Counted from the stretch's first letter, positions 8,980 to 61,869 are shown. The stretch: 64,000 bases of DNA from an uncultured euryarchaeote (GCA_937899865.1 CALBRH010000033.1:1873-65872), one strand, 5' to 3'. Numbers and translations are program-made. The notes: generated by a model not told the origin, from the sequence alone.

Positions 8980-9000
8980 CTACCCAATTGTAGTAATTTT

Positions 9001-12000
9001 ATGGTAGAGAAAAGGGGTTCTAAGAAAGGCGGACCACGCAAGTATTTCTCTACCCTTTACTATTCAAATCAAGAATCAAGAACTTCACTACCAACTGCTG
9101 AGGAGCAAGCAGAATTGGCAAAACTAACAACCGATTATGAGGGTACAAGATATCAAGTTCCGGCTGGTATGCATGATGTTCGAGATGCGAGGAAATTGTT
9201 CAAAGAAATTGATGAAGACTATGATGCTAATGCTGCCAATAAAGATGATATTCGATGGAATAGGGAACATTCCTTAGACAATAAAAATAGTGACTATGAC
9301 TATCGTTTTTGGTTACAATATCAGAGCGAAGAAATCTCTGCAGGCAATCGATCCATGCAATTGATGAAGAGCCGAAGCAAAGAATTTCGAGATGCGATGA
9401 GTAAACTATCAGATTTAACTGTGGAAGTTGCAGAGAATCTATATTCGATGAGTTATGATGTTGTAAATACTGATTCTAAAACATCTAAACTCCACCCACT
9501 TGCACATCTAATTGAGCTAAACAGACTGATGTTGAAAGAATCAAACACTACTACTAAGGGATTGGGTGAGATTATTTTGCAAAGAACAAAAACATGGAGT
9601 TATGTGATGGACATTAATTTCTCGTTTGAAAAAGACAACGGTGGCAAAAACCTCGAGTATCTTAAAGAAAAGCCACTATTTTACCATCTTGCGAACACTA
9701 TGCTACAGGTTTATTTCAAGTCAATCCGCAAATCCACTAAATTGAGAACATTCAAAAATAACGACGAGTTAATCGAAGCACTCAATGAACTTGGTTATGA
9801 AGATACTGAAGGCAAGGCTAAAAAGGAACTTAAACAAGAGTTGAAAGAACAATTATTGATAACAAGCGATAAAGATTTAACCAATAAAAATTACAAAATC
9901 ACATATGTATGTGAAACCAATTCTTTCTTTAGGAAACTTCACAAAAAAATCGGTAAAGTTTTGTCTAAATGGACGGGATATTACACTATATTACCAGGTA
10001 AGAAAGATCCTTTTTTTGAACAGTTAAAGCATGTGTTAGACTATCCAGTAAACGAATTTTTGACAGTTGATTTCATTACTCCTGCGCTGGAAAAGTTCCG
10101 TAGAACGTGCATAAAAACTGCTGCAAGTTGTTTATTTAGCGCACAGCTGGCAGGTTACATCAATTTCGATTCTGCATCAGTAGATGAATTAGATTCTCTT
10201 TACGATTCAGAGTATGAAGGCTCTAATACCTCTTATCCAAATGTGGTTCGAATGTCAAAGAAATTGCTGAATGATTTGAATCAAGGTGACCATGCTATAA
10301 TCAGACATTTCCAGATGGACAGAAAGCGTAACATGTATTGTCTGCCAAAATCGCATGTTAGACAATCAGACGAAGAAAGGCAAAGTTCCGCAAAAAGCAG
10401 TAAGGGCAATGGAGGTTTTTTGCATAATGATAGTATGACTGTATCTATACATCCTGCATTAACCAACCTGATCGAGGAAGGCAGTTTAACTCACACAAGA
10501 TTCGAACCCTCTGAAGATACAATTAATGCTCTAAATATCTTACAAAAAACCCAATGGTCGATAAATTTAGATTTTCTTGATTTCATTGCTTATTTTACCT
10601 ATGAAGGAGAAAAAATTACACCATATCCAGAAGATATTCGCCAAGTTGCCTGGCAACGTTCAGACAATATGATGTTAAGAGATATATTCATTGAAAGAAT
10701 GGGTTTACGGAGTAGCGATACTTCAATGGAATCTCGTTTCCGTGACATTAAATTTATTCTCAAACAAGCAAGAAAAAATCTACTTAATGCAGGCAACATT
10801 TTTTGGCACCCATGGTTTTGTGATTGGCGTGGTAGGTTTAACACTAAAGTAAACGAATTAAGCCCTCAGGGCGACGACCTATCAAAAGCAATGCTATTGT
10901 TTGCTAAATGGAAGCCATTAGGAGAGAGAGGACGATATTGGCTCTATGTAAGAGCATATGAATTATTAAGGAAAATACCTAAAATTAACGATGGCTTTCC
11001 TAAGTTAGATGCATTCGATAGACAAGTCGAGTGGGTTGAGGAAAGGTTAGATAAGATCATAAAGTATGGCAAAAAATTGAATCGAAAAACCTCTGAAATT
11101 GAGCTTGAGAAGTTATTACAGGATTTGAAAGTGGATAAGCCGAAACCAAAGTCGGAAATTTTTCAACGAATTGCATTCCTCATTGAATTTGTCAGAATTC
11201 ACGAAGTTTACGACAAAGAGAAAGATTGGGATAAGGTGAAATCTGGCTTACCTATACACTTGGATGCCTCATGTAATGGCTTTCAGCACATTGCTGCATT
11301 AACCCGATTAACCCGAAATGAAGAATTAGCGGAAGATGAATTAGAAAAAAAAGAAGAATTAGCAAAAGAGGTCAATCTGCTAAACAAAAGTACTCTTGCT
11401 AAAGGAGATTTGTACAAAGAGGTTGCAGTGATTGCAAAGAACAATCTGGATGAAGACTTCGTCGAGGCAAAACAAATCAAAAAACTAATTGATGACCTTG
11501 AGTTGAATGAGAACTCAAGAAACGCCCTAGAGGAAAAAATATTTTCCAGGGAATTCTGCAAACCATTAGTAATTCTTGCAGGATACGGAGCTAGAGATTT
11601 ACATTCAACTATCATGAATTTCAATGGCAAAAAATTACGCGGTGGCAGGTACAAGCCAAAGAAAGGAAGTAAGTCTGAAGTAACATTACACTTAGAATCA
11701 GAATTATATCAAGTAATTGAGGAACTTGCTAAAGAATATCCCGGCGAATTTGACAAATTAGTGTTAAAGAAACAGAATGAGGACAAGGAATATTTAATTC
11801 CAGTAGAAAATTGCAAACTAGCCCACCGCTTTGGCCTAGATTTGTCGCATTATATTCACAAGTGTATAGTCAAAGCAACCCATAATACATTAGGTGAAAT
11901 AAAGGAGAAATTGAAGGAAATATATTCCAATATTGATACACTAGGCATCAAAACTGAAACGGATTTGCAACAATTAGACGCTATGACTCATAAAGGCCTA

Positions 12001-59361: not shown

Positions 59362-59922
59362 ATGAGGAGAAATAGTGTAGTAGTATTTCTTCTAATGACA
59401 TTGATGACATCTAGTCTCTCAGGATGTTTAGGTTTGTTACAAGCAAGAGAGACCATTGAAGGGCTACGTGATGATGTATACCAAGTATCATATCCAGATA
59501 AAGTAGACATGGCACACACATTTTCTACAATCACGGTACAACCGTATTCCAACCAGACTTCATTCCCAGTTGATAGTGCTGTGGAGAGAATAGAGATTTA
59601 TTTCAAAGTTGGAATGAGTGGTTCTGACACAGTATCATGCTTTGATGAAGTAATTTCTAGCGAGTTGCGTTATGTTCGTGCTGAAGTTACCACTCCCTCA
59701 GGAGTTTCATTTTGGCTACAAGATGTCTGTGAGGATGTTCCACCTGCTGTGGATACTTTTGAGCCAAACCCTGAATTTGAGACAGGCGACTGGAAATTAG
59801 AGGTCGAGGCTAGAGGTTGGGGTGAGAATACATTTGGAGCATTCCAAGATAATTTCATCATAGTAATCACTGTTCATCGAGTATGTCAACAGTATCCTAT
59901 CGAACCACCTTGTGATGAATAA
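59362..59922 (+). CDS. Putative lipoprotein
   Basis: Signal peptide with a lipobox-like LSGC (MTLMTSSLSGCLG). Confidence 0.55.
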   Translation: MRRNSVVVFLLMTLMTSSLSGCLGLLQARETIEGLRDDVYQVSYPDKVDMAHTFSTITVQPYSNQTSFPVDSAVERIEIYFKVGMSGSDTVSCFDEVISSELRYVRAEVTTPSGVSFWLQDVCEDVPPAVDTFEPNPEFETGDWKLEVEARGWGENTFGAFQDNFIIVITVHRVCQQYPIEPPCDE

Positions 59923-61119
59923 TCACGCTAGAGACTCGTCACAAGCGTATTTTCTTGAACAGTTTTGGCATTTGCCAACTCGTTCATGATTACGTTTTGC
60001 GCCACCTTCAACCATCAACCGCTGGATTTCTTGAACTTCATCAAATAATTCAGATTTTGCAGCATCATCCCATATAATTTGGTGAATATTTTCATTACCA
60101 TATTGTAAGATTCCGTATGGTGTATTTCGCTTAGTATTTATTTCAACAAGATGGATATAGGCTAACAATTGACGGCGATGAGATGTATGCGGGCGTTTAG
60201 GGATTCTTCCTGTTTTTTGCTCGATTGGAATAAATTCTCCATCGATTATTACAATTTGATCAGGTCTGCCTCTAATTCCAGTTTGTTTGTCAACAAGTAA
60301 TCCTGCTGTCTCTTCATCATCAGAATAGGCTACTTCAGAACCGGGTTCAAGGCCAACATCTTTTCTTGCTAATTCAGATTCATTTTCAGAAATAAGCGCT
60401 TTTTGCAATTGCCAAGAAGCTGCTAACGTCCATATCATTGCTAAAATTATCAATATAAATCCAGCTTGTATGCGATTTTCAGCAGCATTAAGCGCAATTG
60501 AATGAAGACCTAGTAACATGGCAGCGAATAGTAAACTGATTTCTACTTTCCCTGCTTCAAACCATCCACCTTCGAAATCATTAGGTTCCCATTCAGGTTC
60601 CATAATTTTAGTTTCTTCAATCAATTTGTTCTTTTCTCTTCTAAGGTTCTCAGTTAAACCAAACCATTTCCGCCATGGAATATAGATTGTAATTATGCCA
60701 GCGGCTAGTACGGTTAGGCTCCACATTGCGAGATATCTTGCCATATCTTTTGGATATAACAACACATCATCAATCATCATGAATGCTATTGAATCAATAA
60801 CGATAGCAACTATTACGGAAAACCACCAAGTCCAAATTATCATTTGACGCTTGAACTGGATTTGTTTTGATTTGAAATCTGTAACCTTTTGATGTATTTG
60901 TGCATGTTTGGTTTTACCCATTTCAACAGATTCTCCTTTGCCGCTTTTGCCTTTTTTTGCCAATTCCCAAGATACGGGGCAGTATGAGTGGCGTTCGATA
61001 TCACTAGCACTTACTTTTAGGAGATTGTTGTTCTCATCACGCCAAAAACCATCTTTACTTTTCTTTGCTTTAGATAGGTCAAAATCAGGAGAATTCAGGC
61101 TTACTGTTGTCTCCCCCAT
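59923..61119 (-). CDS. Cas4/RecB-like PD-(D/E)xK nuclease with a 4-Cys cluster and four inserted TM helices
   Basis: N-terminal HSYCPVSWE. Then a GKTKH motif, about four hydrophobic helices, and RGRPDQIVIIDGEFIPIEQKTG (D...ExK). Then RRQLLAYIHL (QxxxY) and the C-terminal CQNCSRKYAC (CxxCx5C). Confidence 0.7.
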   Translation of the reverse strand: MGETTVSLNSPDFDLSKAKKSKDGFWRDENNNLLKVSASDIERHSYCPVSWELAKKGKSGKGESVEMGKTKHAQIHQKVTDFKSKQIQFKRQMIIWTWWFSVIVAIVIDSIAFMMIDDVLLYPKDMARYLAMWSLTVLAAGIITIYIPWRKWFGLTENLRREKNKLIEETKIMEPEWEPNDFEGGWFEAGKVEISLLFAAMLLGLHSIALNAAENRIQAGFILIILAMIWTLAASWQLQKALISENESELARKDVGLEPGSEVAYSDDEETAGLLVDKQTGIRGRPDQIVIIDGEFIPIEQKTGRIPKRPHTSHRRQLLAYIHLVEINTKRNTPYGILQYGNENIHQIIWDDAAKSELFDEVQEIQRLMVEGGAKRNHERVGKCQNCSRKYACDESLA

Positions 61120-61260
61120 ACTATGCGTTTCATGTCTTGAGACTTCTAATCTTCGCCAAATTGAGTCAATTTTTGGAAAAATTTCTCATCTTACAAAATT
61201 TGTATTATTGCGAAGCGGTTTAATATGGGGGTCAAGTGGGGCGAATGCTGAGGTCATTTC

Positions 61261-61869
61261 ATGTCTGAAGAAGCAAGCCTACTATTGCCGTTTGAAACCT
61301 ATGAAGAGAATGCTGTTAATATCGGTACTCAACAGAAGAGTGCAGATATGGCAAGATTCATTGATACCGTTAGAGATGATGGACTTTACTTGCTTGATGT
61401 AAACATGACTGATTCAAGAATAAGAAGTACTGCGACTTTTCTTAACAAGTTTGATTCTCCTAGAATTATGGTCGTCTCTGCACGACAATATGGTCAAAGG
61501 CCAGCAAGACTGTTTGCTGAAGCAATCGGTGCTAACGCAGCGGTTGGCCGTTTTATCCCTGGCTCTCTAACCAATCCAGCTCTTCGATCATACGTTGAGC
61601 CAGATGTATTATTCGTAACTGACCCTGCAGCAGATCAACAAGCATTGAAGGAAGCAGTAAATTCAGGGCTTCCAATTGTTGGAATTGTTGATGCTAACAA
61701 TAACTTGAGAAATGTCGATATTGCAGTTCCAGCAAATAACAAGGGACGCAGATCACTTGCTCTAATTTACTGGCTATTGGCTAGAGAGGTTCTCAAGGCT
61801 CGTGGAGAAACCACTGATGAGGATTGGGCAGCAGCTCAAGATGTTGAAGAGTGGCAATCTACTTTCTGA
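61261..61869 (+). CDS. rps2: 30S ribosomal protein uS2
   Basis: Archaeal uS2 pattern: LLPFETYEENAVNIGTQ, VVSARQYGQRP, DPAADQQALKEA, IPIVGIVDANN. Confidence 0.9.
   Translation: MSEEASLLLPFETYEENAVNIGTQQKSADMARFIDTVRDDGLYLLDVNMTDSRIRSTATFLNKFDSPRIMVVSARQYGQRPARLFAEAIGANAAVGRFIPGSLTNPALRSYVEPDVLFVTDPAADQQALKEAVNSGLPIVGIVDANNNLRNVDIAVPANNKGRRSLALIYWLLAREVLKARGETTDEDWAAAQDVEEWQSTF

Follow-up and report, generated by a model that had tools for sequence, protein, structure and literature searches.

A stretch of 64,000 nucleotides (nt) of genomic DNA from an uncultured euryarchaeote (GCA_937899865.1 CALBRH010000033.1:1873-65872; the whole stretch is referred to as the window) encodes a nuclease of the Cas4 family whose catalytic fold is interrupted by four predicted transmembrane (TM) helices. 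The open reading frame (ORF) comprises 398 amino acids (aa) plus the stop codon and lies on the minus strand, beside the divergently transcribed gene of the ribosomal protein uS2. The genome assembly has a size of 2.01 Mb and is 91% complete. All features of the locus are compiled in Table 1.

Table 1. Features of the nuclease locus, with positions counted from the first letter of the window.
Feature	Position (nt)	Strand	Basis
Whole gene, Cas4-family nuclease with membrane insert, 398 aa	59923-61119	-	ORF call, Pfam Cas_Cas4 and PDDEXK_1, >1000 homologues
Stop codon	59923-59925	-	
N-terminal cytoplasmic half of the nuclease fold, residues 34-92, with C47 and G68...H72	60844-61020	-	Invariant residues, alignment to Cas4 4r5q and 8d3l
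C47	60979-60981	-	
H72, metal-binding	60904-60906	-	
Transmembrane hairpin 1 (TM1, short outside loop, TM2)	60676-60843	-	Hydropathy, AlphaFold helices
TM1, residues 93-116	60772-60843	-	
TM2, residues 126-148	60676-60744	-	
Cytoplasmic inter-hairpin loop, residues 149-190	60550-60675	-	Length comparison, model confidence, lysine and arginine count
Transmembrane hairpin 2 (TM3, TM4), by profile comparison a tandem duplicate of hairpin 1	60403-60549	-	hhalign
TM3, residues 191-212	60484-60549	-	
TM4, residues 217-239	60403-60471	-	
C-terminal cytoplasmic part: helical stalk and linker (residues 240-279), catalytic core (280-398)	59926-60402	-	PF01930, TIGR00372, invariant motifs, Foldseek
D287	60259-60261	-	
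E300-x-K302	60214-60222	-	
Q317...Y321	60157-60171	-	
C384-xx-C387-x5-C393	59941-59970	-	
Divergent intergenic region, 141 bp, A/T-rich, common to the nuclease and uS2 genes	61120-61260	.	Sequence
Ribosomal protein uS2, divergent neighbour	61261-61869	+	TIGR01012 uS2_euk_arch, 2e-71
Conserved 186-aa ORF, N-terminal signal or lipobox-like segment (...LSGCLG...)	59362-59922	+	ORF call

The motifs of the protein follow the order known from Cas4: SASDIERHSYC47PVSW, G68KTKH72, GRPD287QIVIIDGEFIPIE300QK302, Q317LLAY321, and C384QNC387SRKYAC393. A preliminary description of the window had recognized these Cas4/DUF83 hallmarks (N-terminal Cys, GKTKH, D...ExK, QxxxY, CxxCx5C), and all of them were recovered within the gene. 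Exactly four cysteines are present (C47, C384, C387, and C393). In an alignment of 115 sequences, reaching down to approximately 25% identity, all four were invariant together with H72, D287, E300, K302, Q317, and Y321, and the same was true for G68. In a broader alignment of 30 sequences, H72, D287, K302, Q317, and Y321 remained invariant, and E300 was found in at least 90%. A motif scan of 185,579 species genomes returned relatives in 585 of them. Because the catalytic and cysteine residues are invariant in 115 sequences and so many species genomes encode a relative, the motif set is not a product of chance.

Profile searches supported the PD-(D/E)xK assignment of the preliminary description. 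PF01930 (Cas_Cas4) was matched with 38.1 bits (cut-off 22.7, E 2.1e-9) by residues 283-393, corresponding to profile positions 53-158 of 160, and it is due to the membrane insert that only these positions match in one stretch. Further matches were obtained with the PADLOC Cas4 models (2e-18), with a PHROGs entry described as 'CRISPR/Cas system associated' (3.8e-13), and with Pfam PDDEXK_1 (1.2e-6). When residues 93-239 were deleted in silico, PDDEXK_1 aligned end to end (positions 2-247 of 247), and the N-terminal piece therefore provides the first third of this domain that was otherwise missing. A PDB search with the single sequence gave no meaningful match, so that a family profile was required. 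The profile of 115 family members matched the Cas4 structures 4r5q (3.5e-6), 8d3l (5.8e-5), and 4ic1 (9.5e-5); the YCP...G..H segment of the N-terminus aligned to the N-terminal Cys/His segment of Cas4 (4r5q and 8d3l), and the core motifs aligned as well.

Structure prediction led to the same family. An AlphaFold model from 19 close homologues was unusable, with a predicted local distance difference test score (pLDDT) of 48, but the 115-sequence alignment remedied the low confidence (pLDDT 81.9, predicted template modelling score 0.74), leaving only residues 1-11 and 156-189 uncertain. Foldseek against the PDB placed the type I-C Cas4 8d3l_I/J on top (E 1.2e-4, target TM-score 0.48-0.50), followed by Cas4-Cas1 (7mi5), and then by Dna2, ACE1, MGME1, AdnAB, RecE, and EXO5. 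The protein thus has a Cas4/RecB-type nuclease fold, as its motifs, family membership, and fold matches agree.

The four hydrophobic helices that the preliminary description had placed between the His motif and the catalytic Asp were confirmed by Kyte-Doolittle hydropathy, whose peaks agree with the AlphaFold helices at residues 63-115, 123-146, 191-212, and 216-255. Its figure of about 190 aa for the insert was roughly right; H72 and D287 are 214 residues apart, and the purely membrane part accounts for approximately 147 aa. In the model, the helix bearing H72 (63-115) runs unbroken into TM1, and the TM4 helix extends to residue 255, so that the nuclease would stand on two helical stalks directly below the membrane.

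To assign the two halves to a side of the membrane, helices lying between the N-terminal Cys and GxPD motifs were counted in full-length representatives from a profile search against 1.84 billion sequences (922 matches at E<=1e-3). The first count gave an even number in 49 of 54 representatives (27 with four helices, 13 with eight, and 9 with two). With a laxer threshold and more sequences, 68 of 70 were even (37 with four, 15 with eight, and 16 with two), and the two exceptions, with 1 and 7 helices, appear to be counting errors. The mean number of lysine plus arginine residues (K+R) in the 115-sequence alignment was 3.2 for the N-terminal flank, 0.3 for the TM1-2 loop, 3.3 for the TM2-3 loop, 0.9 for the TM3-4 loop, and 3.5 for the C-terminal flank, which sums up to approximately 10 inside versus 1.2 outside. 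Given the even helix number and the positive-inside charges, both halves and all four cysteines are therefore predicted on the cytoplasmic side. The preliminary description had considered cysteines on opposite sides of the membrane to be incompatible with a single iron-sulfur (Fe-S) cluster; by helix parity and K+R counts, they share one side.

A comparison of hairpin 1 (residues 86-152) with hairpin 2 (186-252) by hhalign gave a probability of 97.5% (E 5e-12, score 56), whereas 30 column shuffles scored no higher than 14.6 and a reversed control gave 11.3. As judged from these profiles, the two hairpins are tandem duplicates. On a tree built from the soluble parts only, helix number clustered, with 16 changes compared with a mean of 29 after shuffling; it changed several times, and eight-helix forms occur in at least two strongly supported separate groups. 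No six-helix form was seen among the 70 representatives, as if the whole hairpin array doubled rather than single hairpins being added. The inter-hairpin loop (149-190) is a Poseidoniales-type extension, approximately 40 aa longer than in the 330-aa relatives, which ends with an invariant GGW..G and is predicted to be disordered (pLDDT <50 at residues 156-189).

In two other families of the phylum (f15 and f34), two adjacent ORFs take the place of the gene, with the break exactly at the hairpin loop. Of these, the first (89-106 aa) carries the Cys/His segment and one C-terminal TM helix, and the second (172-189 aa), whose start codon lies 1-2 nt past the stop of the first, carries one N-terminal TM helix and the catalytic core. 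These split forms were located at L135, L143/L137, L147, L144-L146, and L138. Another variant, the 635-aa metagenomic relative P0220, has two TRAM domains (PF01938, 1.5e-15) C-terminal to the Cas4 core and, as called, does not include the N-terminal Cys/His segment.

Conservation of the TM helices within the Poseidoniales matches that of the core (majority fraction 0.67-0.82 versus 0.80). Invariant residues in the membrane helices include D109, E193, Q218, T231, and Q237, and among 26 Poseidoniales sequences W96, W98, W99, F100, and D109 of hairpin 1 did not vary.

The preliminary description had reported neither cas genes nor a CRISPR array in the window, and this extended to the whole 2.01-Mb assembly, where Cas1 was not found, a k-mer scan detected no CRISPR-like array, and the nuclease was the single PF01930 match; no cas gene was seen among the neighbours either. 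Distribution was assessed in 401 Thermoplasmatota genomes, with a threshold of E<=1e-10 for nuclease matches. Cas1 occurred there in 0/57, 1/37, 0/10, 1/9, 0/19, 0/5, and 0/4 genomes of the carrier families f1, f2, f3, f9, f28, f22, and f24, respectively. A CRISPR-linked function was consequently rejected, as Cas1 was found neither in the genome nor in the 57 sampled genomes of its family and an array was not found, and the nuclease is CRISPR-independent and behaves as a core gene. Since Cas1 is absent or rare in the carrier families, the label 'CRISPR-associated protein Cas4' assigned by annotation pipelines is misleading for this branch.

The only match of the CRISPR-like repeat scan was the 20-mer CCATCTTGACCGTCAGCACC on contig C51 (829-973), present in three copies at a spacing of approximately 72 nt, which is not long enough for an array and probably represents a tandem repeat within a coding sequence. 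The genome also encodes other PDDEXK_1 nucleases, namely two neighbouring ORFs (594 and 635 aa) on contig C22 (approximately 8550-11430), each with N- and C-terminal pieces, and proteins of 1215 aa on C15 (17672-18706) and 441 aa on C38 (24705-25499); none of them matches PF01930.

The nuclease was found in 282 of the 401 Thermoplasmatota genomes, a number to be read as an upper estimate of intact TM forms; split forms, as checked in family f34, are among the weakest matches (1e-13 to 1e-35). Every one of the 57 genomes in the window's family carries the gene, usually as a single copy. In the sister family f2, it was present in 11 of 37 genomes, and the streamlined genera with genomes of 1.3-1.5 Mb do not have the gene. 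By name, the close homologues belong to Candidatus Poseidoniaceae or Poseidoniales (marine Group II) and the distant ones to Thermoplasmata or Thermoplasmatota; one form with two TM helices is encoded by the cultured methanogen Methanofollis formosanus (WP_220682637.1). A scan of IMG/VR viral contigs found no relatives, and a viral or mobile origin of the nuclease was rejected on this ground.

The surroundings of the gene are stable. uS2 was divergent and adjacent in 79 of 80 Poseidoniales species loci (53-93% identity), and the intergenic spacer shared with it presumably holds the promoters of both genes. On the other side, the convergent 186-aa ORF was present in 77 of the 80 loci and had no match in Pfam, PADLOC, or PHROG; it ends directly at the stop codon of the nuclease, so that the two genes share no spacer and leave no room for a terminator. 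The eight-helix forms lie directly downstream of the gene of ribosomal protein eL15, in the same direction, in 3/3 loci. The survey of homologues and neighbourhoods, which had been proposed beforehand, thus arrived at a widely encoded protein in a fixed core-gene context. Comparison of the neighbours with the PADLOC defence models (PADLOC-DB 2023, which is older than SNIPE) gave no match, and neither a helicase domain in the nuclease nor a conserved helicase neighbour was found by Pfam and neighbour comparison. A 164-aa ORF at 60908-61402 on the plus strand, which covers the 5' end of the nuclease gene in antisense and reaches into the start of uS2, is most likely spurious.

As a possible partner, the gene of a TPD protein (PF14811, a PD-(D/E)xK-type protein resembling eukaryotic CDIN1/C15orf41) was considered, which occurs in 226 of the 401 Thermoplasmatota and in one clade lies 25-100 nt upstream of the nuclease in the same direction (L034, L035, L038, L041, L043, L044, and L053). 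A general partnership was rejected, as the genome under study has TPD on another contig and the phyletic patterns differ, with TPD versus nuclease carriers amounting to 0/14 versus 14/14 in family f4, 0/53 versus 50/53 in f15, 48/48 versus 2/48 in f5, and 37/37 versus 11/37 in f2. The TPD gene of the genome is situated at C24:3126-3509, and its motif KTPD...WIESK resembles PD-(D/E)xK.

Taken together, we consider it probable that the protein is an active metal-dependent nuclease of the Cas4/RecB type with a four-cysteine [4Fe-4S] site, which is permanently anchored in the cytoplasmic membrane, has its catalytic domain on the cytoplasmic side, acts independently of CRISPR, and most likely cuts or resects DNA ends and flaps that form at or reach the inner side of the membrane. 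What we infer here extends to the binding of a cluster, catalysis, the substrate, and the role in the cell; the mechanism would be as follows. The nuclease domain would assemble from two cytoplasmic pieces, residues 34-92 and 240-398. The first would supply C47 and the metal-binding H72 on the long helix running into TM1, and the second, following the helix out of TM4, would contribute D287/E300/K302, Q317/Y321, and C384/C387/C393. The two homologous hairpins would join the pieces on the membrane side, with the Fe-S cluster acting as a staple on the opposite side. The assembled enzyme may then cleave DNA ends or flaps in a Mn/Mg-dependent manner like Cas4 and the Solo-Cas4 of M. mazei, which carries a [4Fe-4S] cluster and cleaves DNA in the presence of Mn/Mg (PMC12501428). 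Tethering could confine a potentially harmful nuclease away from the bulk chromosome and restrict it to nucleic acid on the inner side of the membrane. Regarding the cellular role, housekeeping processing of DNA ends is favoured, if not quite probable in itself, because the gene is vertical, syntenic, and non-diversifying; location-dependent destruction of incoming DNA is a lesser candidate, some other role is rather unlikely, and DNA uptake is improbable.

Several observations weigh against this interpretation. The NCBIfam cas4 model TIGR00372 covers residues 272-393 with 58.9 bits, below its equivalog cut-off of 65 bits, and deletion of the insert in silico raised the score only to 61.5 bits, still below that value. 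Absence from the streamlined Poseidoniales genera implies that the nuclease is dispensable. The conservation of the membrane part suggests that it does more than anchor, and the invariant polar residues are left unexplained by a mere tether. Finally, the ribosomal gene neighbours and the TRAM fusion make an RNA substrate conceivable as a minor rival.

Of the alternatives, a location-based innate defence deserves most attention, even if we regard it as unlikely. A membrane nuclease would destroy viral or plasmid DNA as it enters and would tell self from non-self by place, in analogy to SNIPE, a constitutively membrane-bound nuclease that cleaves phage DNA during injection (PMC13190303) and sets a precedent for such cleavage at the membrane. 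The lack of Cas1 in the sampled Poseidoniaceae and the predicted position of the active site just below the membrane would be in line with this role. However, the gene is near-universal, single-copy, and vertically inherited in fixed synteny with uS2, its neighbours gave no match to defence models, and its TM region shows strong conservation instead of diversification. In addition, the absence of relatives from the IMG/VR viral contigs gives no sign of viral mobility. Typical defence genes do not behave in this way. Action on incoming DNA at the envelope, in defence or uptake, as suggested by the preliminary description, is less favoured by this evidence than housekeeping.

A more speculative possibility, to which we assign a low likelihood, is that the hairpin array is not a passive anchor. 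It might form a membrane module that oligomerizes and serves to bind a partner or conduct DNA, with the nuclease as the arm of an unrecognized archaeal apparatus for surveying or processing DNA that crosses the membrane. This idea is based on helices that are as conserved as the active site, on their invariant polar residues, on a helix number that changes by whole hairpins, and on the gene split at the hairpin loop. If true, the apparatus would be a phylum-wide, CRISPR-independent counterpart of a SNIPE-like entry defence or a DNA-import machine.

The proximity to ribosomal genes in two clades (uS2 divergent, eL15 upstream and co-directional) and the relative with two TRAM domains, which usually bind RNA, could also indicate a membrane-tethered RNA or RNA/DNA nuclease of turnover instead of a DNA-end nuclease, which would make the protein functionally analogous to RNases Y and E, the membrane-bound enzymes of bacteria. 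The characterized enzymes with an Fe-S iron staple, Cas4, AddB, Dna2, and EXO5, act on DNA. These relatives and the Foldseek matches, including MGME1, which are DNA enzymes, speak against such a nuclease, ribosomal genes are often neighbours by chance, and the TRAM fusion amounts to a single cluster; we therefore judge this reading improbable.

Fe-S clusters can sense redox state, and a TM region as conserved as the core suggests a function beyond anchoring. It would nevertheless be very surprising if the protein were a catalytically inactive membrane protein that reuses the Cas4 fold for DNA binding, for a structural task, or for redox sensing by its Fe-S site, as all six residues of the active site are invariant in the 115-sequence alignment and five of them also in the broader one, where E300 alone falls to no less than the value given above. 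That a canonical CRISPR adaptation Cas4 has drifted from its locus and still works with Cas1-Cas2, as the NCBI and JGI label 'CRISPR-associated protein Cas4' for relatives would have it, is hardly credible for a genome without Cas1 or a CRISPR-like array, from a family with 0/57 Cas1 carriers and a phylum in which Cas1 is absent or rare in the other carrier families.

The preferred reading, a membrane-anchored DNA-end nuclease, bears on a family known until now only from soluble enzymes of CRISPR adaptation and from enigmatic 'solo' members. In an entire branch, which most Thermoplasmatota carry, among them the very abundant ocean Poseidoniales, the Cas4 fold is threaded through the membrane. 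This determines where the enzyme can act and offers a concrete handle on what solo-Cas4 does. It also represents a single catalytic domain that was split by duplicating TM hairpins and that exists in natural two-gene versions. On the practical side, surveys of archaeal immunity could be misled by 'CRISPR-associated Cas4' labels in lineages whose sampled genomes yielded no Cas1.

For comparison, the Cas4 of CRISPR systems (PF01930/TIGR00372/COG1468; 4IC1 SSO0001, 4R5Q, 8D3L, 7MI4/7MI5) shares the RecB-like fold and the motif order and provides the best profile and structure matches. While the Cas4 family is defined by a compact, contiguous, soluble domain of approximately 160-220 aa, the nuclease described here has a 147-aa insert of four TM helices between the His helix and the first catalytic strand, separating H72 from D287. 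Moreover, it is accompanied by no cas1, cas2, or CRISPR, in contrast to CAS-Cas4 proteins, which are encoded with cas1/cas2 beside a CRISPR array.

The Solo-Cas4 proteins of archaea (Hudaiberdiev et al. 2017, PMC5704561; Methanosarcina mazei Solo-Cas4, Rentz et al. 2025, PMC12501428) come closer, as they are likewise encoded outside a CRISPR-cas locus and not on a mobile element, a setting that corresponds to the core context beside uS2 and the lack of viral relatives. The nuclease is the only Cas4-family gene product of its genome. The described solo-Cas4, however, is soluble, whereas here 2, 4, or 8 TM helices interrupt the fold, or it is divided between two genes. A transmembrane Cas4 was not described in the full-text literature searched; the word 'transmembrane' is absent from the main text of both articles, and the sole match for 'membrane' in PMC5704561 is an unrelated gene name.

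The nuclease domains of AddB, Dna2, EXO5, and MGME1/ACE1, which followed Cas4 among the Foldseek matches, have the PD-(D/E)xK core pinned by a four-Cys cluster in common with the protein. They are soluble domains that usually occur in fusion or in partnership with helicases, whereas the nuclease here is associated with a helicase neither as a domain nor as a conserved neighbour. The likeness to SNIPE, the membrane anti-phage nuclease of E. coli (Saxton et al. 2026, PMC13190303), is one of concept only, in that a nuclease is constitutively located at the membrane and its target could be set by location. SNIPE is a defence gene of patchy occurrence in bacteria, and its domains have diversified, whereas the gene here is a conserved archaeal core gene outside any defence context. 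The membrane-interrupted Cas4 nuclease can thus be regarded as a structural variant of a known family that is real, well supported, widespread, and apparently undescribed.

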